This document shows, piece by piece, positions 14,370 to 30,318 of a stretch of 64,000 bases of DNA. Positions within the stretch are counted from its first letter, which is position 1; each line of letters opens with the position of its first letter. The DNA comes from a virus. Position numbers and translations under genes: made by a program. The notes beneath the pieces were generated by a model. That model ran no database searches and had not been told where the DNA came from. It saw nothing but the letters and a program-made list of their open reading frames with translations. Location of the stretch: UHGV virus genome UHGV-1367859. One strand, given 5' to 3'.

Positions 14370-14454
14370 CAAACTTGTTCGTGAAAAGAATGTAAATGGC
14401 AAAGAAGTGAGAATCATTACCTACCTAGCCTGTGAAGGTGCAAGTAGGGTGCAT

Positions 14455-14527
14455 GGTGCCATCTTCTAAATGGTCAGGAAACTGCCCTTTCAAGGCAGTA
14501 ATCTGGGTTCAAACCCCAGTGGCACTA
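14455..14527 (+). tRNA. tRNA-Glu (anticodon UUC)
   Basis: Acceptor ggtgcca/tggcact, anticodon stem ctgcc/ggcag, loop ctttcaa, T-arm ctggg-ttcaaac-cccag. Confidence 0.75.
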
Positions 14528-14536
14528 CAATATATA

Positions 14537-14609
14537 GCTCATGAAGTGTAATGGTTTTGCATATCACACTGTCAATGTGAGGGATGGGGTTCAATTCCCC
14601 CATGGGCTG
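14537..14609 (+). tRNA. tRNA-Asp (anticodon GUC)
   Basis: Acceptor agctcat/atgggct, anticodon stem tcaca/tgtga, loop ctgtcaa, T-loop ttcaatt. The D-stem is weak. Confidence 0.6.
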
Positions 14610-14643
14610 CTGGCTATGTAACAAAGGCTCAGAGGAGCCAAAT

Positions 14644-14730
14644 GGAAGTCTAATCTATCAGGGATAGAAGCAGTCTTGAAAACTGAATGCTCATGTGAAA
14701 GTGGGTGGGGTTCGAGTCCTCAGGCTTCCT
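14644..14730 (+). tRNA. tRNA-Ser (anticodon UGA), long variable arm
   Basis: Acceptor ggaagtc(t)/(a)ggcttcc, possibly an 8-bp stem. D-stem tcta/taga, anticodon stem cagt/actg with loop cttgaaa, a roughly 20-nt variable region, and T-arm tgggg-ttcgagt-cctca. Confidence 0.5.
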
Positions 14731-14921
14731 CTATGATAACAATATTGAGAAGAGAAGGGTGGGTACTCAACCCTAATGATAAAGTAGTCAACTCAATACT
14801 TAAGAGAGTTGAACAGAACAATGGACTATGTCCCTGTCAGAATGACTCTGAGGATAAGCATTGTCCTTGTTCGAACTATAGAGTACTAGACCACTGTTGC
14901 TGCGGTTTATATAAGAAACTT

Positions 14922-15006
14922 GGAGAGTAATTTATCAAGGTGATAAACCTATCTGCTAAATAGTGTGGTCATTAATTTGGCTTTGGTTCGAGTCCAATGC
15001 TCTCCT
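14922..15006 (+). tRNA. tRNA-Ser (anticodon GCU), long variable arm
   Basis: Acceptor ggagagt/gctctcc, D-stem ttta/taaa, anticodon stem ctat/atag with loop ctgctaa, T-arm tttgg-ttcgagt-ccaat with one mismatch. 85 nt long. Confidence 0.45.
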
Positions 15007-15012
15007 CAACAT

Positions 15013-15087
15013 AGAGTAGTAGGGTAATAGGTAACCCCCTTCATTTGGGATGAAGTGATACTGCAAGTTCGAGTCTTGTCTACTCTA
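15013..15087 (+). tRNA. tRNA-Pro (anticodon UGG)
   Basis: Acceptor agagtag/ctactct, D-stem gggt/accc, anticodon stem cttca/tgaag, loop tttggga, T-arm gcaag-ttcgagt-cttgt. Confidence 0.7.
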
Positions 15088-15093
15088 CTTAAT

Positions 15094-15167
15094 GGGCGTT
15101 GTGGTGTAATTGGCTAACACATCTCCTTTGCAAGGAGAAGTTCAGGGTTCAAGTCCCTCATTGTCCA
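15094..15167 (+). tRNA. tRNA-Ala (anticodon UGC)
   Basis: Acceptor gggcgtt/attgtcc with the G3-U70 wobble that is the Ala identity element. Anticodon stem tctcc/ggaga, loop tttgcaa, T-loop ttcaagt. Confidence 0.7.
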
Positions 15168-15252
15168 CTTTGTTTTTCATGTTTTCATAAAATTGTAGGA
15201 CTGTTGTTAGTCCCTCTTTTCGGCAGTTAGAGGATAAAGAAACTGCCCACTT

Positions 15253-15323
15253 TGGGATATAGCTCGAAGGTCGAGCGTGAGACTGTTAATCTCTTGGTGA
15301 GAGTTCGATTCTCTCTATCCCAG
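15253..15323 (+). tRNA. tRNA-Asn (anticodon GUU)
   Basis: Acceptor tgggata/tatccca, D-stem gctc/gagc, anticodon stem (t)gaga/tctc(t), loop ctgttaa, T-arm gagag-ttcgatt-ctctc. Confidence 0.7.
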
Positions 15324-15442
15324 CCTAATAAAGAGAATAGTACTAGTGTAAGACTCAACGTAACATGTTCAGATATTAGCTCTGTTCTGAGTGTCGTATA
15401 ACTCAACCTAGCTACAGGGGGTGGTTAAAGGTAGCAACTGGT

Positions 15443-15483
15443 AGGTATGGTACTAGTAAAAGTTCGATTCTTTTACCTACCAC
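15443..15483 (+). other. tRNA-like minihelix (acceptor plus T-arm only)
   Basis: ggtaggt ... aaaag-ttcgatt-ctttt-acctacc-a gives a perfect acceptor and T-arm, but there is no room for D or anticodon arms. It lies directly upstream of the HNH ORF start. Confidence 0.25.
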
Positions 15484-15484
15484 T

Positions 15485-15961
15485 ATGAGAAGAAAAGGTA
15501 CAAGTAAAGTATATAGTATCTCTGATAAGGAGTTTATAAATTTAATAAATAGAGTTAATAGTTACTCTGATGCCCTGAGAGCATTAGGACTAACTACTAA
15601 AGGGGGTTCTTCACAAGATGTCTTGAAAAGAAGAATCCAAGAACTAGGATGTTCAACATCTCACTTTGGAGATGTAAGCATAAAATCTCCAACGCAAGTA
15701 TATCCCATTGAGAACATACTAGTAAAGAATAGTAGCTATGCTAATATAGCTTCACTTAAAAGAAGGCTTATAGACAATAAGTTGCTAAAATATGAATGCA
15801 GTAAATGTGGTATATCCTCGTGGAATGGTCAGCCACTATCTCTACATCTAGACCACATAAATGGTATAAATAATGACCATAGATTAGAGAATTTAAGATT
15901 CTTATGCCCTAACTGTCATTCACAGACAAGTACATACGCAGGTAAAAACAAAAGAAAATAA
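15485..15961 (+). CDS. HNH homing endonuclease
   Basis: CSKCG ... LDHINGINNDHRLENLRFLCPNCH is an HNH/Zn-finger motif. It is paralogous to 8236-8652 and embedded in the tRNA array. Confidence 0.75.
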   Translation: MRRKGTSKVYSISDKEFINLINRVNSYSDALRALGLTTKGGSSQDVLKRRIQELGCSTSHFGDVSIKSPTQVYPIENILVKNSSYANIASLKRRLIDNKLLKYECSKCGISSWNGQPLSLHLDHINGINNDHRLENLRFLCPNCHSQTSTYAGKNKRK

Positions 15962-15970
15962 TCATTACTC

Positions 15971-16042
15971 ATTGGTGTAGTGTTAATGGTAGCACAGTGA
16001 ACTCCAAATTCACAAGTGAGGGTTCGATTCCTTCCACCTTTG
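15971..16042 (+). tRNA. tRNA-Trp (anticodon CCA)
   Basis: D-stem gtgt/gcac, anticodon stem gtgaa/ttcac, loop ctccaaa, T-arm gaggg-ttcgatt-ccttc. The acceptor stem has two mismatches. Confidence 0.55.
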
Positions 16043-16048
16043 CCACAT

Positions 16049-16122
16049 TGGGATATAGCTTAGATGGTTAAAGCATCTGACTGATATTCAGAAGACCGTA
16101 GGTTCAAGTCCCACTATCCCAA
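16049..16122 (+). tRNA. tRNA-Ile (anticodon GAU)
   Basis: Acceptor tgggata/tatccca, D-stem gctt/aagc, anticodon stem tctga/tcaga, loop ctgatat, T-loop ttcaagt. Confidence 0.7.
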
Positions 16123-16124
16123 CT

Positions 16125-16206
16125 GTACTAGTAGCTTAATGGTAAAGCACCACACTGTGAATGTGGAAGATGTGAGTTCAATTCTCACCTAGCACCCCAA
16201 CATATG
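16125..16206 (+). tRNA. tRNA-His (anticodon GUG)
   Basis: Acceptor gtactag/ctagcac with one mismatch, D-stem gctt/aagc, anticodon stem ccaca/tgtgg, loop ctgtgaa, T-arm gtgag-ttcaatt-ctcac. Confidence 0.6.
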
Positions 16207-16214
16207 GATGTATC

Positions 16215-16291
16215 CCCTGTGTCTTATACACACTAGAAAGGGTAGTTGGTCACACGCAGGTTCAAGCCCTGCCATCCATACAATACTCATG
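16215..16291 (+). tRNA. atypical tRNA or tRNA pseudogene (isotype undetermined)
   Basis: It has a perfect acceptor (atggatg/catccat) and T-arm (gcagg-ttcaagc-cctgc), but the internal 43 nt does not fold into canonical D and anticodon arms. The only good hairpin is tgtgt-cttat-acaca. Confidence 0.3.
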
Positions 16292-16338
16292 AGTGGCATA
16301 GTAGTCCCTGGGGTGGTTTCAAACTGCTATGTCTGTAT

Positions 16339-16410
16339 CTCTAGGATTCCGAATGGTTAGGAGCTGGTCTGCAAAACCAGTATTTGTGGGTTCAATTCCC
16401 ACCCTAGAGT
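16339..16410 (+). tRNA. tRNA-Cys (anticodon GCA)
   Basis: Acceptor ctctagg/cctagag, anticodon stem ctggt/accag, loop ctgcaaa, T-arm gtggg-ttcaatt-cccac. Confidence 0.7.
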
Positions 16411-16522
16411 CCTTGGAGGAGCAGGTAGTCTATCCATGGAAAAACCTCCGTAAAAACAGCTACAATTGACTACTAAGGAGAAGGAAGGGATAAATAACTC
16501 CTTAACAAATACCCTTCTACCA

Positions 16523-16594
16523 CTTCCTATAGCTCAATGGTAGAGCTACTGACTCTTAATCAGAAGGTTCAAGGTTCAAATCCTTGTAGGAAGA
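16523..16594 (+). tRNA. tRNA-Lys (anticodon CUU)
   Basis: Acceptor cttccta/taggaag, D-stem gctc/gagc, anticodon stem ctga/tcag, loop ctcttaa, T-arm caagg-ttcaaat-ccttg. Confidence 0.75.
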
Positions 16595-16776
16595 CATAAC
16601 ATTTTAATTAAATAACAGTGTTATGAGAGTACTTAGATTTATTAAGAAAGCAGTCAAAGCTTATTTTAGAATGACTGCTGAGAACTATTCTATAAGGTGT
16701 ACAGGTGATGTATTTATACCTGTCCCTTAAGGATAGTTCCTCCTTCCTCTCTGACAAGTTATTTGATAATAAATAT

Positions 16777-16857
16777 GGGAGTATCGCGTAGTGGCAATCG
16801 CAGTTGACTGTAAATCAACCCTCTAAGAGTTCATAGGTTCGAGTCCTTTTGCTCCCA
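16777..16857 (+). tRNA. tRNA-Tyr (anticodon GUA), long variable arm
   Basis: Acceptor gggagta/tgctccc, D-arm gcg-tagtggcaat-cgc, anticodon stem gttga/tcaac, loop ctgtaaa, a 13-nt variable arm, and T-loop ttcgagt. Confidence 0.75.
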
Positions 16858-16922
16858 CTTCAATAGAACTTTGGCTTTTATCTATAAGCCTGACAGGGGT
16901 AGAGACCTGAATAGATAATATT

Positions 16923-16996
16923 GGAACTTTGGTGTAGATGGTTTGTCACATCAGATTGAAGCTCTGAGGGCTGGGGTTCGACTCCCTGAGGTTCCA
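16923..16996 (+). tRNA. tRNA-Phe (anticodon GAA)
   Basis: Acceptor ggaactt/aggttcc, anticodon stem tcaga/tctga, loop ttgaagc, T-arm tgggg-ttcgact-ccctg. Confidence 0.75.
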
Positions 16997-17019
16997 CTAC
17001 ATAGTAAAAAGAGAAAGAT

Positions 17020-17619
17020 ATGGTAATAAAAAGAGGGGATAAAGGTCCTAATGTAAAGCTCCTTCAGAGGAAGCTTAATCTGAAAGATGATGGAATATTT
17101 GGACCTCTCACAGAAGAAGCAGTCAAAGAATTTCAGAAGGCTAATGGTCTTGTTGTAGATGGCATAGTGGGAAATAACACATGGTCTAAGCTGAATGTAA
17201 CTCAGAACAAGAGGAATATAAAGGAAATTATAGTTCATTGTTCTGCTACTCCTGAAGGTGAGGACTTTACTACTGCGCAGATTAAGCAATGGCACCTTCA
17301 AAGAGGTTTCTCTGATATAGGTTATCATTATGTAATCTATAGAGATGGGTCAATACATGCTGGTAGACCAGAGGCTATATCTGGAGCACACTGTACTGGG
17401 CACAATACAATGTCTATTGGAGTATGCTATATCGGAGGATGTGCCAAGGATGGAAAAACTCCAAAAGATACTAGAACTGAAGCTCAAAAAGCTGCTCTAG
17501 TACAGCTTCTTAAACAGCTTAAAGCAAAGTACCCTAATGCTACAATACATGGCCATAGGGAGTTTGCAAATAAAGCATGTCCAAGTTTTGATGCTAAAGC
17601 AGAATATACTTCTCTCTAA
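17020..17619 (+). CDS. endolysin: peptidoglycan-binding domain plus N-acetylmuramoyl-L-alanine amidase (amidase_2/PGRP type)
   Basis: An N-terminal PG_binding_1-like repeat (GDKGPNVKLLQRKLN...DGIFGPLTEEAVKEFQ) followed by an amidase_2 signature (GYHYVIYRDGSIHAGRPEAISGAHCTGHNTMSIGVCYIGG). It is embedded in the tRNA array. Confidence 0.8.
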   Translation: MVIKRGDKGPNVKLLQRKLNLKDDGIFGPLTEEAVKEFQKANGLVVDGIVGNNTWSKLNVTQNKRNIKEIIVHCSATPEGEDFTTAQIKQWHLQRGFSDIGYHYVIYRDGSIHAGRPEAISGAHCTGHNTMSIGVCYIGGCAKDGKTPKDTRTEAQKAALVQLLKQLKAKYPNATIHGHREFANKACPSFDAKAEYTSL

Positions 17620-17630
17620 AAAGAGAGACA
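17609..17630 (+). terminator. hairpin at the endolysin stop codon
   Basis: The hairpin tctctc-taaaaa-gagaga spans the TAA stop codon and is weakly terminator-like. Confidence 0.3.
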
Positions 17631-17634
17631 ATAA

Positions 17635-17716
17635 GCCTCTGTGGTGAAATGGTAAACACAAGGGACTTAAAATCCCTCGGATTTAATCCTTGAGGGTTCA
17701 AATCCCTCCAGAGGTA
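17635..17716 (+). tRNA. tRNA-Leu (anticodon UAA), long variable arm
   Basis: Acceptor gcctctg/cagaggt, anticodon stem aggga/tccct, loop cttaaaa, T-arm gaggg-ttcaaat-ccctc. Confidence 0.75.
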
Positions 17717-17720
17717 CAAT

Positions 17721-17807
17721 GCCCCCTTGGTGGAATGGTAGACACGCTGGTCTTAGGAACCAGTATGAAGTAATAGTAGTGTGAGGGTTCGAGTCTCTCA
17801 GGGGGTA
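17721..17807 (+). tRNA. tRNA-Leu (anticodon UAG), long variable arm
   Basis: Acceptor gccccct/agggggt, anticodon stem ctggt/accag, loop cttagga, T-arm gaggg-ttcgagt-ctctc. Confidence 0.75.
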
Positions 17808-18252
17808 CTGAAATAAGAAATTAAGTATTTATATAACATTGAGTTTTACTGTAAATATTCAGGTGGCGTAATTCATGTTATCATAACCCCTTTACTATTT
17901 GTAAAAGTATGAAATACACAGTTTAGTATAATAAACAGAAATATCAAGTAGACATATCTGATAATAATATAGCTATTTATGATTCCTATAAAATCACTTC
18001 ATTATCTGATATGAGTAGTTTCTCATTCATTTAAAAGCTAGATTTTACCCATACAGTTCTATTAATAACAGAACTATGTTTAGCTTACTTAATGAATGGA
18101 GAACTCACAATTTATTATATTCTCTTGGTGTTCAAAAAGAAAGAACTGCTAGTGTAGACCTGGAGTCTAATCAATCTTGGTATATGACCGTAGCTTATGC
18201 TATATTATCTCCATTTTATTTACACTTTTATTAAAAATTTATTATCAATTTA

Positions 18253-18292
18253 TTTGGTAATTTAAATTATTTTTCATACCTTTGCATTGTTA
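18253..18292 (+). promoter_or_regulatory. Bacteroidetes-type sigma-A promoter dedicated to the suppressor tRNA
   Basis: TTG at 18254-18256, a 20-nt spacer, TACCTTTG at 18277-18284. The tRNA starts about 18 nt downstream. Confidence 0.5.
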
Positions 18293-18301
18293 ATAAAATA
18301 T

Positions 18302-18373
18302 TGCCTCATGGTGTAATGGTTAGCACAGAGGACTCTAAATCCTTTGGTCTCTGTTCGAGCCAGAGTGGGGCGA
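18302..18373 (+). tRNA. amber-suppressor tRNA (anticodon CUA), Gln-like body
   Basis: Acceptor tgcctca/tggggcg, 7 of 7 paired counting GU pairs. D-arm gtg-taatggttag-cac is nearly identical to that of tRNA-Gln(UUG) at 14222. Anticodon stem gagga/tcctt, loop ctctaaa with U33, CTA at 18335-18337, and A37. T-arm ctctg-ttcgagc-cagag. Confidence 0.75.
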
Positions 18374-18706
18374 CTAACTTTAATCACAATGAATAAGGAA
18401 GCTTTAAAATGGTTTATGTCCAATGTAATGCTCTAGCTAGAGCAGATTGACAAAGAGGTAAGTAACTCACTGTTGCAGGATGAACAGTTTGTTCTTGATT
18501 TTTATGATAAATTAAATGAAATAAGTGTTAGAAAATAAAAAAAATATAATTATGGAACAGGTAAAGATACCACACCCTATTGCTAGGATGGTGCTAACAC
18601 AGACTAAAATTATTCTTAATAGCCCCAACAACCAAGACAAAGAGTGGCTCAAAACTTTTAAAGAAGAACTTAATAAACTTATTAATCCTGAGTAATCTTT
18701 AGGAAA

Positions 18707-18779
18707 GCTTCCTTAGTTCAGCTGGTAGAACTACTGTTTTGTACTCAGTATGTCAGGGGTTCGAGTCCTCTAGGAAGCT
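18707..18779 (+). tRNA. tRNA-Thr (anticodon UGU)
   Basis: Acceptor gcttcct/aggaagc, D-stem gttc/gaac, anticodon stem actg(t)/(t)cagt, loop tttgtac, T-loop ttcgagt. Confidence 0.65.
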
Positions 18780-18788
18780 CAAGTAAGT

Positions 18789-18859
18789 GCAGGATTAGTT
18801 TAATGGTAAAATGCCACTCTTCCAAAGTGGATTTGGGGGTTCGATTCTCCTATCCTGCT
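18789..18859 (+). tRNA. tRNA-Gly (anticodon UCC)
   Basis: Acceptor gcaggat/atcctgc, anticodon stem ccact/agtgg, loop cttccaa, T-loop ttcgatt. Confidence 0.7.
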
Positions 18860-18865
18860 CTATAT

Positions 18866-18938
18866 TGTGGGGTGTTAGCAGTGGTAGCTAGTCAGGCTCA
18901 TAACCTGAAGGTCGGAGGTTCGAGTCCTCCTCCCGCAA
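18866..18938 (+). tRNA. tRNA-Met (anticodon CAU); the initiator / elongator / Ile2 distinction is unresolved
   Basis: Acceptor tgtgggg/tcccgca, D-stem tagc/gcta, anticodon stem tcagg/cctga, loop ctcataa, T-arm ggagg-ttcgagt-cctcc. Confidence 0.6.
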
Positions 18939-19111
18939 CTAAATCGAAATATTATGGGAGAAGATATGTATAAGAACGGAAAGATAATGAATGCTGTTGA
19001 AGCTCAGACTATCAGGGAGCTAGCAGATTTTGCCAATGATTATAAGATACCTAGGGAGGATGTGGTTTCAATCCTTCCTTCAAGAGAAGGATATGTAATG
19101 GTTTACTACTA

Positions 19112-19354
19112 TTGAACAACATGGAAGAGAACAAAGAGAATGTAAAGGAACTCACACTACTTAGGTTTGAGGCAGTGTCAAAGTTCAAATCTGTAAAGAG
19201 GGCTTGGAGAAGAGGTCATGTTTCAATTTATGGGTTCATTTACCCAAAGAGACCTTTCAATAACAGGACATCAAGAAAGAACAGCAGGCCCTTTAATGAA
19301 CTTAGAAAGGAGATATATGGGCAACTCAGAGATAAAGGCAGACTTGCAGTCTAA
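19112..19354 (+). CDS. hypothetical protein
   Basis: 80-aa ORF that overlaps the next ORF in another frame. Confidence 0.3.
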   Translation: MNNMEENKENVKELTLLRFEAVSKFKSVKRAWRRGHVSIYGFIYPKRPFNNRTSRKNSRPFNELRKEIYGQLRDKGRLAV

Positions 19355-19541
19355 ATATAATAATGAACCAGTATTCTATTGCAAACATTGCCTATCTCTT
19401 AAAATAAGAGATGCTGGTCTTCCTGACCTACTTTACTGTGATGACTGTGGCTCAGCTGATGTCCTTTCAACAAGTATAGAAGAATGGGAGAAGATGTACA
19501 AAGAGAAATATGGATTTAAGTTTTTAGATAAGGGTTTATAA
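19218..19541 (+). CDS. hypothetical Zn-ribbon protein
   Basis: CKHC ... CDDCG cysteine pairs. Confidence 0.4.
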   Translation: MFQFMGSFTQRDLSITGHQERTAGPLMNLERRYMGNSEIKADLQSKYNNEPVFYCKHCLSLKIRDAGLPDLLYCDDCGSADVLSTSIEEWEKMYKEKYGFKFLDKGL

Positions 19542-19553
19542 TACAAAATAAAA

Positions 19554-19853
19554 ATGGAAGAGAAGAATGAAAAAATGGCTGAACAGCCTACGAGATTTAC
19601 TTATGAACAACTTGAGCAGATTGCAAGTAATCTAAGCACTCAGGTACAACAGCTCGGAGCAAGGCTCCAGGAAGCTAATATGTTCAATATGTTCAAGAGA
19701 CTGGACTACTGCTTCAAGGTACTTGAAGTTGCTCCTACTCTGTCTGCTGCTATGTTTAGCCCTGATTTTGTAGAAAGATGTGCCAAGGAAATTGAGGAAC
19801 TTATGACTCCTCCTACTCCCACACCTACAGAGGAAGAACTTGAAAAGGAGTAA
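19554..19853 (+). CDS. hypothetical protein
   Basis: 99-aa ORF. Confidence 0.4.
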   Translation: MEEKNEKMAEQPTRFTYEQLEQIASNLSTQVQQLGARLQEANMFNMFKRLDYCFKVLEVAPTLSAAMFSPDFVERCAKEIEELMTPPTPTPTEEELEKE

Positions 19854-19858
19854 AAGCT

Positions 19859-20242
19859 ATGATGGGGAAAATGAACAATGTTATTAGAATCCCCACTTCA
19901 TTAAGCACAGGTTTCTTTAGATTTTGGTTTGAGTTCCTTAGACCTTTTCACAATCTTACTGACAGAGAGATGCAGGTAGCTTCCTCCTTACTTAAGAGGA
20001 GATATGAGCTTAGTAAAGTCATCCATGATGAAGACATCCTTGATAAGGTTGTGATGAGTGAAGATACAAAGAAAGTAGTGAGAGAGGGGTGTAACATCTC
20101 TCTCCCCCACTTTCAAGTAATAATGGGGAAACTCAGAAAGAACAAGGTCATCCTTGAGGGCAGAATCAATCCAAAGTTCATTCCAAACCTCACAGAAGAA
20201 CAAGGTTCTTTCAGGTTACTTCTTAATTTTGAACTCAGCTGA
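19859..20242 (+). CDS. hypothetical protein
   Basis: 127-aa ORF. Confidence 0.4.
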   Translation: MMGKMNNVIRIPTSLSTGFFRFWFEFLRPFHNLTDREMQVASSLLKRRYELSKVIHDEDILDKVVMSEDTKKVVREGCNISLPHFQVIMGKLRKNKVILEGRINPKFIPNLTEEQGSFRLLLNFELS

Positions 20243-20514
20243 TGAACTACAATGACCTTGTAACTCAATTATCTAAAGAACTTAACTTACCACCTAGAGT
20301 AGTGGATAAAGTATACAAGTCTTATTGGAAGTTTATAAGGGATTCTATTCAAGGACTACCTCTTAAAGAGGATATTTCTGAAGAGGAGTTTCAGAAACTA
20401 AGGACAAACTTCAATATACCCTCTCTTGGTAAGTTATCATGTACTTATGATAGAGTTAAAAGGGTAAAAGAAAGATATAAATACATAAGAAATTTAAGGG
20501 AGAAGAATGATTAA
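20242..20514 (+). CDS. hypothetical protein
   Basis: 90-aa ORF. Confidence 0.4.
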   Translation: MNYNDLVTQLSKELNLPPRVVDKVYKSYWKFIRDSIQGLPLKEDISEEEFQKLRTNFNIPSLGKLSCTYDRVKRVKERYKYIRNLREKND

Positions 20515-20929
20515 AGTAAAGAAAATAAAGCCAATGTTCACTGCTCTCATTACAACAATGGACTTGTATGAGACAGACTCTCTCACTTCTGGAGGTATCA
20601 TTGACTCTACAAAGCAGAAAGGTACTGTAAAGGAGTATCAGAAGGTAGTTGCAGTTGGTGACTCAGTCAGAGGTATCAAGGCAGGTGACTTGGTTTGCAT
20701 AGATGCTACAAGATTTGCCGTAAAGAAGCATAAAGATAACTCAATAAAGACTGACATTGAAGGAGGCAATCCAATCCTTGAATACAGGTTTGATATTGTA
20801 GAGATGGATGGTAAGAGTTACATGCTTCTTCAAGATAGAGATATTCAATTCATTATTGAAGAGTATGATGAGATTGAGGAACCTAAGAAATCCAATCTGG
20901 TAACAGCTCCTCCTGACATCATAATCTAA
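20507..20929 (+). CDS. GroES-like co-chaperonin candidate
   Basis: The ETDSLTSGGIIDSTKQKGTVKEYQKVVAVGDSV...KAGDLV pattern matches the GroES/Hsp10 mobile-loop and core layout. A strong terminator follows. Confidence 0.4.
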   Translation: MIKVKKIKPMFTALITTMDLYETDSLTSGGIIDSTKQKGTVKEYQKVVAVGDSVRGIKAGDLVCIDATRFAVKKHKDNSIKTDIEGGNPILEYRFDIVEMDGKSYMLLQDRDIQFIIEEYDEIEEPKKSNLVTAPPDIII

Positions 20930-20936
20930 TAATCTA

Positions 20937-20975
20937 AGCCTGTATAGATTAAGTTCTGTACAGGCTATTTTTTTT
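20937..20975 (+). terminator. rho-independent terminator
   Basis: Hairpin gcctgtatagattaagttctgtacaggc followed by tattttttttt. Confidence 0.6.
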
Positions 20976-20979
20976 TGAT

Positions 20980-21645
20980 ATGTACACAGTATATAAACAC
21001 ACCAATAAAGTTAATGGCAAGGTCTACATAGGTCAGACCTCTTTTAATGTGGGAAAGAGATGGAAAGAGGGGAGAGGATACAAAACAGGTATCTTTAAGA
21101 GAGCCATAGAAAAGTATGGGTGGGATAACTTTAAGCATGATATAATAAAAGAAGGACTAACTAAAGAGGAAGCTAATCTGTTAGAGATAACCTTAATTAA
21201 AGAATATAAGGAGCTAGGCATATCTTATAATATAACTGATGGCGGGGAAGGGTCTCTTGGATATAGGCATTCTGAAGAGACTAGAAGAAAAATGAGTGTT
21301 AAAGGCAAAGGTAAAAAGATACCTGAGCATGTTAAGCTCTTAGTAAGTTCCAGATTCAAAGGTGTTCCTCTCACAATAGAGCATAAATTAAAGATAAGTT
21401 TATCCTTACAAGGAAAGCCTAAGTCTGAAGAGGCTAAGCTTAAGATGAGACTTAATCACAGTTATCATGACTTAATTGAAATAGTTAAATGTGATAAAGA
21501 AGGAAATATAATTTGTACATACCCATCAATAGCTGATGCAGCTAGAGATACTGGAGTTTTGGAGACTCACATATCAAGATGTGCTAGAGGTAAAAGACCA
21601 TCAGCTGGAGGTTATAAATGGAAATATAAAAATGAAACTACTTAA
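20980..21645 (+). CDS. GIY-YIG homing endonuclease
   Basis: N-terminal VYKHTNKVNGKVYIGQT (GIY-YIG), the NITDGGEG motif, and C-terminal NUMOD-like basic repeats. Confidence 0.8.
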   Translation: MYTVYKHTNKVNGKVYIGQTSFNVGKRWKEGRGYKTGIFKRAIEKYGWDNFKHDIIKEGLTKEEANLLEITLIKEYKELGISYNITDGGEGSLGYRHSEETRRKMSVKGKGKKIPEHVKLLVSSRFKGVPLTIEHKLKISLSLQGKPKSEEAKLKMRLNHSYHDLIEIVKCDKEGNIICTYPSIADAARDTGVLETHISRCARGKRPSAGGYKWKYKNETT

Positions 21646-22174
21646 ATTTGAAGGTTATAAGGTAATCATATCTCCTGAAGCTTTAGCATTAACTCCTTTT
21701 AAGAAGATATGGAACAGGGACAGGTCTGCAAACAAAAATAGAGCAATAGCCGAGATTTCCTACATATATTTTATGGCTGACCCAAGAAGTGACTATCAGT
21801 ACATTATAGATGAGGAAAGTAGGAAGGCTTCTATTAAGGAAGGTGAAGGCTTACCTAATGACTGGGAGCCTGATAACCTTGTACTTGAGGCAATGGAGTT
21901 CTATAAGACTTTCAAGCCAGCATCTGCATTACTTCTTGAAGATACCAGAGTGGCAGTTGATAAGCTGAGGACTCTATTGAGGGAAATAGACCTTGGTGCC
22001 CTTGATGATAAGGGTAAACCTATCTATACTCTCAATACTATCACTGCAACTATCAAGCAGATTCCTACTCTTGTGAAAGATTTGAATGAAGCTGAAGCAG
22101 CTATTGCCAAGGAAATTGCTCAGAGCAATAAGGTAAGAGGTGCTCAGGAAAAAGCAATGTATGAAGATTTGTAA
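21632..22174 (+). CDS. hypothetical protein (terminase small subunit by position only)
   Basis: The start was taken at the internal ATG 21632 to avoid overlap with the GIY-YIG gene. It lies immediately upstream of the large terminase. Confidence 0.35.
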   Translation: MKLLKFEGYKVIISPEALALTPFKKIWNRDRSANKNRAIAEISYIYFMADPRSDYQYIIDEESRKASIKEGEGLPNDWEPDNLVLEAMEFYKTFKPASALLLEDTRVAVDKLRTLLREIDLGALDDKGKPIYTLNTITATIKQIPTLVKDLNEAEAAIAKEIAQSNKVRGAQEKAMYEDL

Positions 22175-22583
22175 TATGACACTTGAAGATGTAATTGAAT
22201 CACTTAATGTGCATATACTGAATAAAAGAAGAGACTTGCACATCTTGTCAAACAGCCAGGAACACCTTGTTCTACAGAGAGTTATAGAACCTCATCCTAC
22301 ATTTAAGTCATATAAGAGGTATGAGTTTATATTATGGGTGGTTGGTAATGATTCAAAGTATAGATTACTTACTTTGACTAAGCAGGTTAATATGAGTGAT
22401 ATTCCTTCATATGCACAAGAGAGCTTTATTAAAGCTACAGAATCTGAATTTGTTACTGGGCTATTCGGCCTTATTCTAGATGGCAAGTCTTTTAATAAAA
22501 AAGACAGAACAATACTTGAAGATATTATCTATGGAGAATACCTCGGCTATGGAGATGAATGTGTACTAGACCCCCTTGACTGA
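22140..22583 (+). CDS. hypothetical protein
   Basis: 147-aa ORF. Confidence 0.4.
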   Translation: MLRKKQCMKICNMTLEDVIESLNVHILNKRRDLHILSNSQEHLVLQRVIEPHPTFKSYKRYEFILWVVGNDSKYRLLTLTKQVNMSDIPSYAQESFIKATESEFVTGLFGLILDGKSFNKKDRTILEDIIYGEYLGYGDECVLDPLD

Positions 22584-25500
22584 AGAACTCCTTGGGTCTT
22601 TACCTGAGGAAGTCAAGGAGGAGTTATTGGACACTATAAATAGTGTAGAACTTATAAAAAGACTTATCTCTCCTAATAGGGTATATGCTAAGGATAGACC
22701 AAGAGATGAGCAAGGAAGGATTATAGTAGACCTTGCCAATCCTCATATACTTGAGGATATGGATTATTTCAGACAACCAGCCTTACACTTTATGAAGCAT
22801 GGCTGCTATACTTTTCTAAGACCAAATTCTAATCCTAACAGTGAATACAGAAAGCACTGGGATGAGGAGATGAGGAGATGTAGAGAGGGTTATGTAAGGG
22901 AGAGTGATGGAGAATGGGTCACAGGATTCCTTTATTGGTTTCTTAATTACTGTCCCATGATGGTAAATAAGGTAATTTCTGGCACAAGGAAAGCTGTCAG
23001 AGTTGAGTCTTTCCCCTTCTTCTTTGAAGGAATCTATTGGAGATTTCACTATCTTCATCAAGCAAGAGAGGCTGGTAAACATGCCATAGAACTTGCAAAG
23101 AGAGGTTGTGCAAAGTCATATAGTCTTGCAAGTATAATGTCTCACAACCTTATACTTGGTGAATCTACTGAAGTAAAGAGGAGGGTTATTACTGTACTTA
23201 CTGCTTATCAGAAAGAGTATCTTAGTGACAGTAAGGATGGCACACTCTCTAAGTTCAAACCTGGAATTAACTTCTCCTTCAAAAATACTCCATTCCCTAG
23301 GCTCATGTTAAAGAACTCTCCTAATGAGATGGCATGGCAGATGGGCTACAAGGATGAGTTTGGTATTGAAAGTGGGTCATTGAATCAGGTGCTTGCTGTT
23401 TCTGCAAAGGATGACTCAGAGAAGTTAAGAGGTAAGAGAGGTTGGATTCTATTCGAGGAGATGGGTTCTTTTAAGGGACTTCTATCCCTGTATGACATCA
23501 CAAGAAAATCTGTAGAAGATGGTGACTATACATTTGCTACAATGTACCTTGTAGGTTGTGTATGTGCTGGTACTAAGGTATGGACATTAGATGGCAGGAA
23601 TATCAATATAGAGGATTTAAAGAGAGAGGATGGTATCATAGGATTTACAGACTCCTTTGAGTCAGGTACTGAACCTAATATTCGCCTCACAAGAGGGATT
23701 ACCAAAGAACCTATAATGAGTTCTATAAGTATTGCTAAAAAACCATGTGTACTTATTAAACTGAGTAATGGAAATGAACTTAGATGCTCTACAGACCATC
23801 CAATTCTTACTCAGAAACAAAGAATGAATCATAATGGGTCTATAAGGTATTATGAAGAAGTATTCAAAAATGCTGGAGCTTTAAGTGTAGGAGATAGAAT
23901 TATAGAGAGTAGGGAAGTTCCAATATTTGGGACAGATACCATGTTTGACCCTAGATTAGTAGGTATGCTTATTGGAGATGGTTCTTATGGATTAAGGCAA
24001 TCCCCCAAGTATAGTTCTGAGGATAAAGAGCTTTTAGACTATGTAAAGCATAGATATGAATGGTCATTATCTGCTACTCATATTACCAAGAAAGGAAAAA
24101 TATACGAGGATATAAGAATTAAAGGTATTTGTAATAAATTAAGAGAATTAGGTATTTAGGGGCAAGTAAAATCCAATAAAAGGCTTCCTATCAACTATTA
24201 GACTCTTACAAGAGATGATACCTCACTATTGCTATCTGGATTATATGATACTGATGGTAGTATAAGCTTTAATAGAGACGGATATATATCTTTAACTCAA
24301 AGCAATAGGAAAATATTAGAGCAAGTTAAAGTACTGTGGAGAAAATTTGGAGTAGTTGGCACTATTGTGGAGACCAAGCCAAAACTATGTTCTGATAGGA
24401 AAGATAGAAATTCTTGGTTTACTCTATCTATATCAGGGAGACATAATTGTACAAGAGTGTGTGGTGTGCTTCAACTTCTTGTTCCACACAAGAGAGATTG
24501 CCTTAAAAGGATAATGGACTATTATAATAGCAATCCGAGTATGAAGGCTCAAAAATATCCAGAGGATATAATAGTTCACAAAGTTACTTCTGTAGAAGAG
24601 ATAGGTGAACAAGAAGTATATAATTTAACTGCTGGATTAAGTCATACCTACTTGGCTAACAATATAGTAACTCATAATACTGCTGCTGAGGATGAGTCAG
24701 ACTTCAGTTCGGCAAAAACTCTTCTTTACAATCCAGATGGTTACAATATTCTGGCTATTGAGAATGTCTATGACAGACCTAAGCAAGGAAAGCCTACCTT
24801 TGGATTTTTCTTTCCTTCTTATGTAAATAGGGCAGGATGTTACAACAAGGATGGTGTTTCTGATGTAACAAAGGCTCTCATAGAAATTCTGTTGGCAAGA
24901 CACAAAGCTAAATATTCTGCTGACCCTAAGTCAGTATTAAGAGTTATTGCCGAGGACCCAATTACACCAGCTGAAGCTATCATTAAAGTGAAGGCTGCCT
25001 ACTTTCCTACAGTAGCTCTTACTGAGAGATTGGCTCAACTTGACTCAGACCCTCATGCTTTTGATGATGTTTACATAGGTAATCTTGCCCTAGCAAGTGG
25101 TAATAAGGTAGAGTTTAGAATAGGTAATGATGTGCCTATCAGAAAGTATGGAGTTGACAATTCAACAGTAGGTGCTATTGAGATATTTGAAATGCCTGAG
25201 AAACAAGCAAATGGGGATGATTTCAATATGAGATATATTATAGGCCATGACCCTGTGGATAATGATTAGGCAGAGTCTTCTTCTCTTTCTTCAACCTTTG
25301 TACTTGACCTGTTTACTGACAGAATTGTAGCAGAATACACTGGTAGGCAGGCATTTGCAGATGATAACTTTGAGATAGTAAGAATGCTGTGTCTATTCTA
25401 TAATGCCAAGTGCATGTACGAGGCTCATCCATATAGTCAGTCTGTACCAACACCAAATGGTATGAAACTGTGGAAGGATGTTAAAATAGGGGATAAACTG

Positions 25501-26904
25501 TTTTCCCCCACAAAGGGTGAAGTAACAGTAACTAATATACCAGTTGATGAGTACATGCCTATATATAAGGTTAAATTAGCTGATGGCAGAATTGTAGAAG
25601 CTAGTAATAATCATATATGGCTAGTATATAAAGGAACTTCTAGAACTCCTATCGAAATTACTACAGAAGAAATGCTTAGGTCAGGGTTAATAACTAAACA
25701 CAAGCAACATAAGTTTTTTATACCTGAGCATAATGGGGTTGATTATAGTTATAAAGAATTGCTCATAGACCCCTATACTATGGGTTTATTGCTTTCTGAA
25801 GGGAGTCTAACAGGAGGTCATTGTGGCAAAAATTATGTACAGATGTCCTCTTCTAGGGAAGATATGGATTTCTACAAAAAGAATATCCCATATAGAGTTA
25901 ACTATATTGGTAACAAGGGGTACTCTTGGCATATTTATATTCCAGGATGTAGAGATATAATGACTAAATATGGGTTATATGGAGCTACAAGTCACACTAA
26001 GTTCATTCCAAATGAATATCTTTTCAGTAACTATGTTCAGAGAATGGAACTACTGAGGGGAATAATGGATGGAGATGGGTGTGCCAGAACTAGGGGGGCT
26101 AGTGTATTTATTACATGCTCACAGTCACTTGCAAATAATGTATTATCCTTAGCTAGAAGTTTAGGGATGAAAGCATGGCTTCAGACTCCTAAAGAAGGGG
26201 TATATAGAGTGTTGATATCTTCCATATATAAGATATTCAAACTCCCTAGGAAAGTAGTGGAGCAACATACTTATAAGCCTTATAGTAAAGGAAGTAGAGC
26301 CTCAGCTATATTAGGAAAGACTGCGATAGATAGTATTAAATATTCTCACATGGAAATGGGCAAATGTGTCACTGTAGACTCAGATGATGGACTATATATG
26401 ATAGGAGATTATGTAGTAACTCATAATTGTAATAAGAAAGGACTATATGCCTATTTCAATAAAATGAATTGCACACACCTACTGGCAGATACTCCTGAAT
26501 ATTTAAGAGACAAACAGATGATTAAGTATTCTGCCTTTGGCTCAAATGCAAAAGGTATCAATGCGAATGCTACTATCAACAATTATGCTAATAACCTGAT
26601 AAGGGATTGGCTACTTCAGCCAGTTCCAACTATAATAAAGGAGGATGGAGAAGAGAAAGAGGTCAATATTCCAAGGCTCTATTCTCTAAGAAATAGAGCA
26701 TTACTTGAAGAGTTAATTTCCTACACTCCTGAACTTAATGTGGATAGAATCAGGGCATTAGGTATGGTTATGCTGTATAGACAAGAGAAGATTATACTGT
26801 ATAGAGATAATCTTAATGCTAAGGCACAGGAGGAAGTCAGTAGTTCATACTTAGGCAATGATTCTTTCTTCCAAAGGAATTACTCCCAAGGGTATATACA
26901 GTAA
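22576..26904 (+). CDS. terL: terminase large subunit interrupted by two LAGLIDADG inteins; contains 3 in-frame TAG codons
   Basis: The track ORFs at 22576-24159, 24229-25269 and 25384-26904 are all in frame 1, separated only by TAG codons at 24157, 24211 and 25267. Intein hallmarks are C-VCAGTKVWTLDG ... LIGDGSYG ... LYDTDGSI ... VTHN|T, and C... LLSEGSL ... IMDGDGC ... VVTHN|C. The exteins carry a terminase ATPase/nuclease-like sequence. Confidence 0.65.
23557..24678 (+). mobile_element. intein 1 (Hint splicing domain plus LAGLIDADG homing endonuclease)
   Basis: Begins at a Cys (block A CVCAGTKVWTLDG) and ends at ...NIVTHN with +1 Thr. It has two LAGLIDADG-type motifs and contains two in-frame TAG codons. 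Confidence 0.55.
25411..26427 (+). mobile_element. intein 2 (Hint plus LAGLIDADG), N-terminal boundary approximate
   Basis: LLSEGSLTGG and GIMDGDGCA are LAGLIDADG motifs. The C-terminus is DYVVTHN with +1 Cys. The N-terminal Cys could be 25390 or 25411. Confidence 0.45.
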
Positions 26905-26949
26905 ATTTAGCAAAAAAGAGTACTAAGACTTAATATTTTACTTATGGGC

Positions 26950-26990
26950 TTGCACAAGTTAAAGGTTTTGCTTACCTTTGCAGCACATTT
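26950..26990 (+). promoter_or_regulatory. Bacteroidetes-type sigma-A promoter
   Basis: TTG at 26950-26952, a 20-nt spacer, TACCTTTG at 26973-26980. The ATG is at 27005. Confidence 0.5.
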
Positions 26991-27004
26991 AAGTTGAAGA
27001 ATAT

Positions 27005-29400
27005 ATGAGTGATTTCACAAATTTACCCCCACAACAACTGCCATTCTCCAGAAAGAATAAGGCTTGGAGAAAGAAGCACCTTGACTGGGCTGGCTCTAAG
27101 ACATTTTTCAACTATTCTTTGGTAAGGAAGAGTGTGATACATAAGAAAATCAACTATGATTTACTTAATGGTAGGCTTCACATGAGTGACCTTGCAATGG
27201 TATTGAACCCTGATAACATAAAGGCAGGTTACATACCTGAAAGGATTCAACATTACCCTATAATGAATAGTAAGCTGAATGTTCTTAGGGGAGAAGAGTC
27301 CGATAGAGTATTTGACTATAGGGTAGTTGTAACTAATCCAAATGCTATTTCTGAAATAGAGAATAATAAAAAGCAGGAATTACTTGCAAGAGTTCAGCAA
27401 CTATTAGCTGAGGAGACTCAATCAGAGGAAGAGTTCAATGCAGAGCTTGAAAAACTCAATGACTTCTTTACTTTTGAGTGGCAAGACATGAGAGAGGTAA
27501 GAGCCAATGCTCTCCTTAATCACTACTCTAAAGAGCTTAATTTCCCCTTCCTCTTTAACCAAGGTTTTACTGATGCAATGGCAGTAGGTGAAGAGATTTA
27601 CCAATGTGATATTGTAGGTGGTGAACCTATCATAGAAAGACTAAATCCTCTTAAAGTCAGAGTATTCAAGTCAGGATATAGTAACAGGATTGAGGATGCT
27701 GATATGATTGTACTTGAGGACTATTGGAGTCCTGGTAAAATCATAGACACTTATTATGATGTCCTTACCAAAAAGGACATGGAGTACATAGAAAAGATGC
27801 CCAATAACACAGACCAAGTAACTGACTCTATGGATAACATAGATGATAGAATGGGGTTTGTAAATGGGCACATGATAGGGGAAGAATTTACTTCTCAGGA
27901 AGGTTTCTTCTGGGACCCCATAGGAATGACAGATGGTGTAGGCACTTCACTTCTTCCTTTTGATGTTGCAGGAAATATAAGGGTACTTAGAGTTTACTGG
28001 AAATCAAGAAGGAGAATTAAGAAAGTTAAGTCTTACGACCCTCAGACAGGTGAAGAGGTATTTAATCTCTACCCAGAAACTTACGTTATAGATAAGGACA
28101 AAGGTGAGGAGGAAAAGATATTATATATCAATGAAGCCTGGGAAGGGACAAAGATAGGTAATGACATCTATGTCAACATGAGACCTAGAGTAGTTCAGTA
28201 TAACAGACTATCCAATCCTTCAAGGTGCCATTTTGGTATTATAGGTTCTATCTATAACCTTAATGACAACAAGCCTTTCTCTCTTGTTGATATGATGAAG
28301 CCCTATAACTATCTCTATGATACAATTCATGATAGGCTCAACAAGCTAATCTCAAGAAACTGGGGTATGCTTATTAACCTTGACCTTGCTAAGGTTCCTA
28401 AAGGATGGGAGATAGAGAAATGGATGTACTTTGCTAAGACTAATGGTATTGTAGTTACAGATAGTTTTAAGGAAGGCAATATTGGTGCTGCTACAGGTAA
28501 GCTTGCAGGTGCTCTTAACAATGCAAGTTCTGGAGTTGTCAATGCTGAACTTGGTAATACTATACAGCAATATACCAATCTTCTTGAGTTTATCAAGATG
28601 GAAATGTCTGATGTGGCTGGTATTTCTAGGCAAAGAGAAGGTCAGATAAGTAATAGAGAGACTGTTGGTGGTGTCGAAAGAGCTACCTTACAATCTTCTC
28701 ATATAACTGAATGGCTCTTTATCATACATGATGATGTAAAGAAGAGGGTTCTTGAGGCATTCCTTGAAACAGCTAAGATAGCTTTAAGAGGCAGAAGTAA
28801 GAAGTTCCAGTATATTCTTTCTGATAATTCAAGTAAGGTTATGGACATAGATGGAGATGAGTTCTCTGAAAATGATTATGGCCTTGTTGTAGATAATAGT
28901 AATGGACTACAGGAGTTACAGCAGAAGATGGATATGCTTGCTCAGGCAGCTTTGCAGAATCAGACTCTTACCTTCTCCACTATCATGAAGCTCTATAATA
29001 GCTCTTCTCTTGCTGAAAAACAGAGAATGGTTGAGAAGAATGAACAGGAGCTTATGCAAAGACAGCAGGAAGCTCAACAGCAGCAATTACAGGCTCAGCA
29101 ACAATAGGCTCAGATGGAAGCTCAGATAAGGGAAGCTGAAATGCAGCTCAAAGATACAATGAATCAGAGAGATAATGAGACTAAGATACTTATAGCAGGT
29201 ATAGGTTCTCAAAGTCAGGAAGATGGCATCCAAGAGCAGGAGTTTTCTGAAGAGGCAAGAGCTAATCTGTTTGAAAAGATGAGAGAGTTTGATGAGAGGC
29301 TCAAACTTGACAGAGAAAGGTTAGCCTTTGATAAGAAGAAAGCTCAAACTGATGCTGAACTCAAAAGAAAATAGATTAATAAGAAACCAAATACTAGTAA
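27005..29400 (+). CDS. portal protein candidate (reads through 2 TAG codons)
   Basis: A large protein of more than 700 aa directly after the terminase. The frame stays open through TAG at 29105 and 29372 to TAA at 29398-29400, and has a Gln-rich C-terminus. Confidence 0.45.
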
Positions 29401-29403
29401 GTA

Positions 29404-30318
29404 ATGAGAAAATTTGATAATATAATACATTCAAATTCAGCCCCTCCTACCAATAGTCTGTGGCTCCATAATGACAAACTTCAATACCATAACAATGGCA
29501 AATGGACTGATATAATATTAACGATAGGAGAAGACAATCCAGAGGCTAAGTTAAAGTTTGAAGAGAGAGAACTGAGTCCCCTACATGACTATGTACCTGT
29601 TATACTTGTAAATAGAGACCGCGACGCGCCACTCAAAATTTTAGCAACGTTTTATAATGGTCAAGTAACAGCAATTGCCGATGGCAAGGCTATTATTTTC
29701 AATGTAGACTACAATGAGAATTGGCTTGTAAAGGAGACTAGAATTATTGACCTTACTCTACTTCCTACCTATGTTGACCTTGAACTAGGTGACTCTCCTG
29801 AGATTGAAGCATATAATAGAGAACAGCTGTCTAGGGTGGCAGGAACATAGTTCCTTGTTCATGCTGACTATGGCATTGGAGTAGGTTCTTGGTATTATAA
29901 TGCAGGTGGAGAAGCTACCATCACTACAGCATCAGGTAACAGAGTGCATTACATATTAACTGCGGATGGAGCTTGTAGAAGGGATGCTGACCACTTTGAC
30001 CATTCTGAATTATTTTATGATTTAGGGGTTATTAACTTAGCTGAAATAACTCCTACAACTATAATAAATAAAGAGATAACTGACTCTGTAGGGGTGGCTC
30101 AGTTCAAAAAAGCTTCGAATGTAGTTCTGACTGTTCACACTTCAAATGGAGATTTTGAAGTTAATTGCCCTCAGGTTTCAATGGGTCCTATTCAAAAGAC
30201 ATTTAATAGTCCTAGCATTGTAGCTGGTAATGAAGATAGTTGGAATTATCTTAAGATAATAGCTAACATCCAAACTGACCCAAGCAAAGTATTAATCACT
30301 ATTGAGGCAATGCAATGA
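29404..30318 (+). CDS. virion structural protein candidate (1 in-frame TAG)
   Basis: Track ORFs 29404-29850 and 29944-30318 are in the same frame and are joined only by TAG at 29848-29850. The gene ends with TGA. Confidence 0.5.

Follow-up and report, generated by a model that had tools for sequence, protein, structure and literature searches.

The gene that encodes the terminase's large subunit (terL; protein, TerL) in a 64,000-nucleotide stretch of the virus genome UHGV-1367859 (herein the window) is best explained as that of a crAss-like phage that reads TAG as Gln and makes TerL as a precursor with two LAGLIDADG homing inteins, one of class 1 and one of class 3 type; we put the probability of this reading at about 0.88. 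Matches of the DNA and of the intein-free protein model show that the phage is related to crAss001 and the PhiCrAssBcn phages (Steigviridae, Kehishuvirus). A preliminary description, made by a model from the sequence, had proposed a large terminase interrupted by two inteins of the LAGLIDADG homing type, and this is upheld by PHROG and crAss001 homology and by Pfam matches to LAGLIDADG_3, Intein_splicing, and Hom_end. The parts of terL and the features associated with it are collected in Table 1.

Table 1. Window coordinates of terL, its extein and intein segments, and associated features
Feature	Positions	Strand	Basis or remark
Amber suppressor tRNA, anticodon CUA	18302..18374	+	ARAGORN; Rfam tRNA, 55 bits; in a 23-tRNA array upstream of the late operon
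Complete terL precursor gene	22531..26904	+	1,457 sense codons and TAA; 4 in-frame TAGs (predicted Gln)
N-extein, TerL residues 1-342	22531..23556	+	Alignment with crAss001 gp19; ends at invariant G342
In-frame TAG, terL codon 13	22567..22569	+	Gln in crAss001 and 82/82 orthologues; CAG in L006
Unoccupied intein site in putative Walker A (KRG/CAKS)	23104..23109, between ∼23106 and 23107	+	Occupied in L006
Intein 1, 374 residues, class 1	23557..24678	+	Clean insertion relative to crAss001 and 82 orthologues; Pfam; same-site homologues
In-frame TAG, intein 1 residue 201, endonuclease domain	24157..24159	+	Also present in L006
In-frame TAG, intein 1 residue 215	24199..24201	+	Aligns to Gln (NYQTL)
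Middle extein, TerL residues 343-590	24679..25422	+	81% identity to crAss001 gp19; T343 through Asp533 to Glu590
In-frame TAG, nuclease-domain extein (HDPVDND*AESS)	25267..25269	+	Gln in crAss001 and 82/82 orthologues
Intein 2, 335 residues, class 3 type	25423..26427	+	Absent from L006; 6BS8 match; AlphaFold/Foldseek
C-extein, TerL residues 591-748, and TAA	26428..26904	+	Begins with Cys591; has invariant Asp696
Co-conversion-like patch directly 3' of intein 2	26428..26470	+	14 substitutions relative to L006 in 43 nt

Structure of the terL Gene and Its Exteins

The frame 22576-26904 (+), which the preliminary description had taken as a single unit, does translate as 1,442 codons broken only by TAG (24157, 24199, and 25267) and closed by a TAA at 26902, where base composition predicts ∼76 TAA or TGA codons by chance (P ∼7e-34). 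The 3' end of the gene was thus placed correctly and the 5' end was not: 82 orthologues of 748 residues set the start at the ATG at 22531, upstream of 22576, from which the frame stays open through a TAG at 22567, and the window sequence MNVY*TPLTEEL (asterisk, TAG) at this start corresponds to MNKYQTELTEEL in crAss001. In all, terL carries four in-frame TAGs rather than the three listed earlier, two in the exteins (22567 and 25267) and, as had been stated, two in intein 1 (24157 and 24199). The 1,457 codons comprise 748 of extein, 374 of intein 1, and 335 of intein 2.

The spliced TerL model (748 residues) matches dozens of database TerLs of exactly that length with 94-96% identity, aligns without gaps to the 82 intein-free orthologues, and forms one continuous tblastn alignment with crAss001 TerL (gp19; residues 1-727, 80% identity), relative to which the window gene has two large in-frame insertions. 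Contiguity of the exteins, named at the outset as a check on the splice junctions, is therefore borne out. The window protein matches the PHROG for terminase large subunit (E 6e-79), and the portal gene lies downstream, starting at 27005. A Pfam search of the spliced TerL returned no family, and phmmer and profile searches against PDB sequences returned no match, so that TerL identity is established via PHROGs, homology to crAss001, and a fold search; of the Pfam domains expected from the preliminary description, those of the inteins (Intein_splicing, LAGLIDADG_3, and Hom_end) were found and a terminase family was not.

An AlphaFold model of the orthologue P0069 (predicted local distance difference test [pLDDT] score 88.5) best matches T4 gp17 (E 9e-12), followed by the Sf6 gp2 and HK97 terminases, and also matches the G20c nuclease domain. 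Invariant columns in 48 diverse intein-free TerLs include R191, E309, E310, G342, T343, D533, E590, and D696. The N-extein contains a putative Walker A motif (KRGCAKS, ∼190-196), a putative Walker B motif (WILFEE, 305-310), and the first half of a putative C-motif, ending at G342. In the P0069 model, residues 190-196 lie in a strand-loop-helix, E309/E310 close a strand, and G342/T343 close the strand after it, positions that fit Walker A, Walker B, and the C-motif, respectively; D533 and E590 lie at the ends of strands in the nuclease domain. Predicted ATPase motifs, a C-terminal nuclease, an adjoining portal gene, the PHROG match, homology to crAss001, and the fold matches together identify the protein as a large terminase.

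Intein 1 appears to split the predicted C-motif between invariant G342 and T343, and intein 2 to follow directly on invariant E590, presumed to be the catalytic Glu of the nuclease; in the P0069 model both sites are at the ends of β-strands. At the junction where intein 1 is inserted, 82 of 82 orthologues have Gly followed by Thr. The residue preceding intein 2 is likewise Glu in all 82, and the residue after it is Ser in 66, Ala in 16, and Cys in the window.

Intein 1 Has a Complete Class 1 Catalytic Set

Intein 1, inserted between MYLVG and TAAE, is absent from crAss001 and the 82 orthologues. Its class 1 catalytic set is complete (Cys1; block B Ser78-x-x-His81; block F Asn356 in VYNL; Thr372-His373-Asn374; Thr+1, ACT at 24679-24681), and Hint blocks A, B, F, and G, which had been proposed as a second check, are all present. 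Pfam Intein_splicing scores 46-51 bits (cut-off 35.8), LAGLIDADG_3 is also above its cut-off, and the matches among PDB sequences include the gp41-1 and DnaB inteins. Homologues that start with CVCAGTKVWT fill the same site, between Gly and Thr, in other crAss-like TerLs.

The LAGLIDADG-like motifs quoted in the preliminary description are present in both insertions, and each intein has two such motifs, each with an acidic residue followed by Gly: LIGDG (Asp141) and YDTDG (Asp233) in intein 1; LLSEG (Glu126) and MDGDG (Asp218) in intein 2. Pfam endonuclease matches across the two inteins are to LAGLIDADG_3 (E 5e-16 and 1.5e-6) and Hom_end (E 2e-5).

Intein 2 Is Most Likely a Class 3 Intein

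Both insertions were described as beginning with Cys. This holds for intein 1; intein 2 starts with Ala (AHPYSQSVPTPNG...) and has a class 3 signature. The description of the C-terminal ends was accurate, both elements closing with His-Asn followed by Thr (intein 1) or Cys (intein 2, VVTHN and then Cys+1, TGT at 26428-26430). Ala1 is fixed by comparison with empty sites: AKC[ML]YE, immediately upstream, is found in intein-free crAss001, in the 82 orthologues, and in a near-identical strain that lacks intein 2 (herein L006, see below), and is thus extein.

The combination of a Trp/Cys/Thr triplet with a nonnucleophilic residue 1 defines class 3 inteins, in which the +1 residue is usually Ser or Thr (PMC2807308). 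Intein 2 has Ala1 and the full triplet (Trp66 at block B position 12, with Ser61 and His64 in the same block; Cys315 at block F position 4; Thr333, in Thr333-His334-Asn335, at block G position 5), with Cys in place of the usual, not obligatory, Ser or Thr at +1. Its best match among PDB sequences is 6BS8, the class 3 DnaB1 intein of M. smegmatis (E 9e-6), to whose Trp67, Cys118, and Thr137-His138-Asn139 the residues Trp66, Cys315, and Thr333-His334-Asn335 align. The Pfam Intein_splicing score is 12.4 bits, below the cut-off. The full-length homologues listed share an A-x-P start and the Trp, C.[TKM]V, and THN motifs; in an alignment of 14 family sequences, all have His-Asn and at least 90% have the block F Cys. 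An AlphaFold model of intein 2 (pLDDT 92; predicted template modeling [TM] score, 0.90) has TliVMA, PI-SceI, and PI-PfuI as its top Foldseek matches (E down to 5e-17; TM 0.65-0.69) and I-DmoI as a further structural match.

The route of splicing is most likely that of class 3 rather than class 2. In 2016 the Bvi IcmO intein was the only class 3 intein known with Cys+1, and its internal Cys is still obligatory (PMC5222942), which favors class 3 for intein 2 as well.

No relative turned up in IMG/VR when it was scanned with peptide patterns of intein 2; the homologues came from the protein database instead. Two distant family members (P0019 and P0020; AQPL start, internal Cys, and THN followed by Thr or Ser) lie in a phage tail-tube-like protein (PF06841) and a RecA/DnaB-like ATPase (PF13481), so the family is not limited to terminases.

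TAG Is Predicted to Encode Gln

The suppressor tRNA(CUA) closely matches the phage tRNA-Gln(UUG) in its D-arm and first 26 nt and is without the long variable arm of the phage tRNA-Tyr. TAG positions throughout the window were compared with crAss001, keeping only the best match per region and excluding antisense and off-frame shadow matches. Gln occupies 15 of the 52 aligned positions, against a background of 4% (p = 1.4e-9), and is the commonest residue, with no other close to it. Late genes on the + strand become long open reading frames (ORFs) with many in-frame TAGs once TAG is a sense codon; a gene for a crAss001 gp44-like virion protein (48616-53466, +) has 40 in 1,616 codons, and the portal gene (27005-29404) contains two, at 29105 and 29372. 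The major capsid gene (39342-40874, +) has no TAG, and minus-strand ORFs at the left end of the window have almost none. The window thus shows both marks of genetic code 15, TAGs in conserved genes aligned to Gln and a tRNA(CUA), and TAG=Gln has been proven by metaproteomics in other crAss-like phages (PMC9523058). We infer that TAG is read as Gln across this phage; an example of a predicted peptide with Gln at TAG is HDPVDNDQAESSSL. Tyr, suggested as the suppressor's amino acid by the alignment at TAG 24157, was rejected on the grounds of the tRNA (no long variable arm, Gln-like 5' half) and of the tally (Gln far above background; Tyr, 2 of 52).

The preliminary description had given the TAGs of intein 1 a special part: either protein splicing would depend on amber suppression, or intein 1 would be translated only late. 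Phage-wide recoding, with a tRNA(CUA) of the phage's own and TAGs in both the exteins and other late genes, removes the ground for this. As the extein TAGs align to Gln in 82 of 82 orthologues, the tRNA is present, and other late genes are rich in TAG, those in intein 1 are to be regarded as ordinary sense codons; TAG 24199 aligns to Gln in P0024, P0026, P0029, and P0033 and in L007 and L008. With the first TAG at codon 13 and TAG=Gln throughout the phage, the whole of TerL, not only its splicing, would need suppression. Late-only translation has been put forward as a hypothesis for recoded phages generally (PMC7886860; Borges 2021 preprint) and does not concern intein 1 in particular.

Intein Content Differs between Near-Identical Strains

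L006, an IMG/VR contig (IMGVR_UViG_3300045988_037736, locus 1817-6343), is ∼99% identical to the window across terL. Its terL contains intein 1, both TAGs (24157 and 24199) included, and lacks exactly 25423-26427 (1,005 nt, intein 2), the empty site reading CMYESNKKG. In its Walker A region, at the site that is empty in the window, L006 holds a different class 3 intein of 341 residues (AHPYFQ...TTHN, then Cys), which is 36% identical to intein 2. Substitutions between the two genomes are concentrated in the 43-nt patch adjoining intein 2 (Table 1), beyond which identity is 100% for ∼430 nt; two more (25419 and 25422) lie 5' of intein 2. Such junction-limited mismatch would be expected if homing had been accompanied by co-conversion, or if intein 2 had been lost precisely via recombination with an empty allele. 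The presence/absence and the mismatch patch both concern intein 2, and no comparable sign was seen for intein 1.

In a related 99-kb phage (L004; ENA ERZ27271068 k141_273162), terL is broken at GHDP/VDND, the first nuclease Asp motif, by ∼770 nt out of frame (locus ∼9292-10063) containing a 165-residue HNH_3 endonuclease ORF. The insert resembles an intron, but matches no Rfam intron family at E ≤ 0.01. The same terL also has an allele of intein 2 (73% identity).

Inteins Recur at Defined Sites in crAss-like TerLs

A HMMER search of 1.84 billion cluster representatives yielded 1,919 TerL relatives, of which the best 148 (P0189-P0336) were surveyed for in-frame insertions of at least 100 residues. 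Within these 148, 58 (39%) have one or more insertions, for a total of 69; some proteins have two or three, and TerLs with three inteins reach 1,765 residues. The insertions cluster at about nine recurrent sites (TerL numbering). Class 1 elements occupy the sites at ∼313-330 (Walker B; CH[LI]KGTE), 343 (C-motif; CVCAGTKV or CLTAGNKV), 444, and 531 (first nuclease Asp; CLTPGEKV). Class 3 elements occupy those at ∼193-203 (Walker A; mostly of the AHPY class 3 type, and the commonest insertion site in crAss-like TerLs), ∼300, 499, 592 (nuclease Glu; AHPY), and ∼631 (Ser+1). All five elements at 592 begin YE/AHPY (slash, junction) and are followed by Cys+1. The AHPY class 3 family is thus found at at least five TerL sites among these representatives. 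Since surveyed insertions recur at both of the sites used in the window, these are established hot spots.

Proposed Pathway and Alternative Explanations

On the preferred reading, terL would be translated as a 1,457-residue precursor, with TAG decoded by the phage tRNA(CUA). Both inteins interrupt TerL at invariant residues, so that activity is to be expected only after both have been spliced out of the precursor. In intein 1, Cys1 would start an N-S acyl shift, the acyl group would pass to Thr+1, and cyclization of Asn374 would allow the G342-T343 bond to be restored. In intein 2, the block F Cys315 would attack the Glu590-Ala1 bond to give a branched thioester; the N-extein would then move to Cys+1, Asn335 would cyclize, and an S-N shift would leave Glu590-Cys591. 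The spliced junction peptides (G342-T343 and E590-C591) are predicted to be ...ATMYLVGTAAEDESDF... and ...NAKCMYECNKKGLY..., respectively. Each endonuclease would cut intein-free terL during co-infection, and the intein would be copied in by recombination; such endonuclease-driven homing would explain the presence/absence among strains and the co-conversion patch. The splicing chemistry, the endonuclease activities, and any effect on timing are predictions from sequence.

Several points weigh against this account. The Walker A, Walker B, C-motif, and nuclease-residue names in TerL are putative, drawn from invariance (which is measured), model geometry, and a weak HHalign match: alignment of the 48-sequence TerL profile with T4 gp17 covered only the Walker B region, with E309/E310 opposite MIYIDE, at 3% probability, a suggestive match but unusable for residue mapping. 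The amino acid inserted at TAG is, for this phage, likewise a prediction. Position 4 of block F in intein 1 is Asn, not the usual Asp, a feature shared by its homologues (YNL). Opposite TAG 24157, 10 of the 11 homologues aligned there, as well as L007 and L008, have a conserved Tyr (GIYGQ); read as Gln, the codon is a predicted nonconservative Tyr-to-Gln change within the endonuclease domain, possibly an early indication that the intein 1 endonuclease is decaying. The pairing of Ala1 with Cys+1 in intein 2, finally, is also that of class 2 (KlbA) inteins.

This last pairing, together with the preference of class 3 inteins for Ser or Thr at +1 (PMC2807308), would suit a class 2, KlbA-like route in which Cys+1 attacks the Glu590-Ala1 bond directly, without the block F branched intermediate. 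We regard that route as improbable, given that intein 2 has the full Trp/Cys/Thr triplet, has Cys instead of Asp at block F position 4, is homologous to the class 3 DnaB1 intein and not to KlbA, and has family members at other sites in which the same internal Cys is combined with Ser+1 or Thr+1. A start of intein 2 as a class 1 element at Cys945 (CMYEAHP...) is scarcely credible: a Cys does lie four residues before the insertion, and His-Asn-Cys does close the element, but AKC[ML]YE is present in intein-free TerLs, L006 lacks exactly 25423-26427, all five alleles at site 592 begin after YE, and excision from Cys945 would delete the invariant Glu590. It is very improbable, too, that the TAGs are true stops, making terL a set of separate products or broken remnants with the intein endonuclease as a free-standing fragment. 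The standard code does split the frame into ORFs of 527, 346, and 506 residues, and public gene callers have recorded the exact 527-residue fragment (P0023), for which a look-up by exact sequence returned no contig. Against this, the phage carries the tRNA(CUA), both extein TAGs are Gln in 82 of 82 orthologues and one is CAG in the 99%-identical strain, and genes for essential late proteins (portal, tail, and virion) hold up to 40 in-frame TAGs with the Gln enrichment given above; a stop at codon 13 would abolish TerL, yet near-complete genomes of 99-101 kb with this arrangement recur in metagenomes.

One or both inteins could instead be decaying passengers, splicing without homing or, in a defective genome, not splicing at all. 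The loss of the conserved Tyr at TAG 24157 speaks for this, and intein 1 is in the same state, both TAGs included, in the window and L006, with no direct sign of recent movement; with that Tyr replaced, the intein 1 endonuclease may be weakening. We nonetheless consider such decay unlikely. Neither intein has lost any splicing-block residue or either of its LAGLIDADG acidic residues, a splicing-dead intein between invariant TerL residues would be lethal to the phage, and intein 2 and the Walker A intein vary between 99%-identical strains with a junction-limited patch, a sign that they were recently acquired or lost through recombination. An intron explanation for the terL insertions was rejected, as an Rfam scan of 14000-30000 matched tRNAs alone and neither a group I nor a group II intron.

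A broader proposal is more speculative, and we think it doubtful as a whole. The AHPY...KCVTVD...THN elements would form one endonuclease-bearing class 3 family, often with the rare Cys+1, that has spread to at least five terL sites in Crassvirales (Walker A, ∼300, ∼499, 592, and 631) and continues to move among gut strains that circulate together. Terminase activation in the window phage would need three maturation steps independent of one another, amber suppression and two chemically different splicings, one of them dependent on a potentially redox-sensitive internal Cys as in M. smegmatis DnaB1, and these could together time DNA packaging or gate it according to the environment, as opposed to neutral parasitism.

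Relation to Known Inteins and Recoded Phages

A TAG-recoded TerL with two inteins has already been described in the circular metagenome-assembled genome (cMAG) OBYQ01000140 (Fig. 7b in Yutin et al. 2021, PMC7886860). As in the window, that TerL consists of three in-frame pieces with two Hint-plus-endonuclease inteins and has TAGs in extein and intein parts; OBYQ01000140 belongs to the Delta group (Suoliviridae), whereas the window phage is a Beta-group relative of crAss001. The relevant passages of that account make no mention of intein class, exact junctions, or population polymorphism. For the Beta-group cMAG OFRY01000050, the same source describes acquisition of a TAG suppressor tRNA and accumulation of TAG in conserved genes including TerL, and its passages on that genome mention no inteins. 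The low TAG load of the window terL (4, with none in the closest orthologues) matches OFRY01000050, a likeness by description only.

The class 3 inteins of mycobacteriophage Bethlehem DnaB, M. smegmatis DnaB1 (6BS8), and Bvi IcmO (PMC2807308, PMC6195587, and PMC5222942) share Ala1 and the Trp/Cys/Thr residues with intein 2; Cys+1 is shared with Bvi IcmO, and sequence homology is detectable to DnaB1. Intein 2 is in a terminase nuclease domain as opposed to a helicase P-loop; DnaB1 and IcmO are mini-inteins, whereas intein 2 keeps a full LAGLIDADG endonuclease domain; and block B of intein 2 is Ser-x-x-His as opposed to Asp-x-x-His. PI-SceI (1VDE), PI-PfuI (1DQ3), and TliVMA (7QSU) share with intein 2 the architecture of a HINT splicing domain into which a double-motif LAGLIDADG endonuclease is inserted, but are class 1 inteins of a V-ATPase or ribonucleotide reductase with 12-15% identity to intein 2.

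In mycobacteriophages, too, TerL is the favored intein host, and the inteins there are of class 1 as well as class 3 (Kelley et al. 2016, PMC5050341). Those inteins lie at P-loop, Walker B, and C-motif sites, among which TerL6-f, in the C-motif, is the counterpart of the intein 1 site. All are in the ATPase domain, unlike intein 2, and their hosts are Actinobacteria phages that use the standard code, unlike the recoded window phage.

The window terL is thus a standard case for Crassvirales, in which the two-intein recoded TerL pattern is published and common, and it leaves the current understanding of inteins, terminases, and recoding unchanged. Assignment of the dominant crAss TerL intein family to class 3 is possibly new, as the passages on inteins covered here from crAss-related papers do not mention it; the frequent Cys+1, the nuclease-domain site, and the pair of strains with occupied and empty sites are possibly further additions. 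Standard gene callers split terL into three fragments, one of which is stored publicly as a 527-residue hypothetical protein, so that annotating the gene correctly requires that code 15 be used and both inteins be taken out. The point is important in view of the place of TerL as the chief marker in Crassvirales phylogeny. The near-identical genome pair, with its occupied and empty sites and 43-nt patch, offers ready material for tests of intein homing in an abundant human-gut phage.

Genes Surrounding terL

A 147-residue ORF at 22140-22583 (+) without a PHROG match overlaps the start of terL by ∼50 nt in another frame and occupies the position expected for a small terminase subunit candidate in crAss-like phages. 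A homing-endonuclease gene lies ∼1 kb upstream of terL (20980-21645, +; PHROG homing endonuclease, GIY-YIG-type matches, resembling crAss001 gp18/gp37), and further free-standing genes of this kind are found within the structural module (45390-46035 and 46755-47495, +); with these three, the late region is heavily colonized by mobile endonucleases. Within the tRNA array, ∼700 nt upstream of the suppressor tRNA, lies an amidase/endolysin gene (17008-17619, +; PHROG amidase, E 4e-62).

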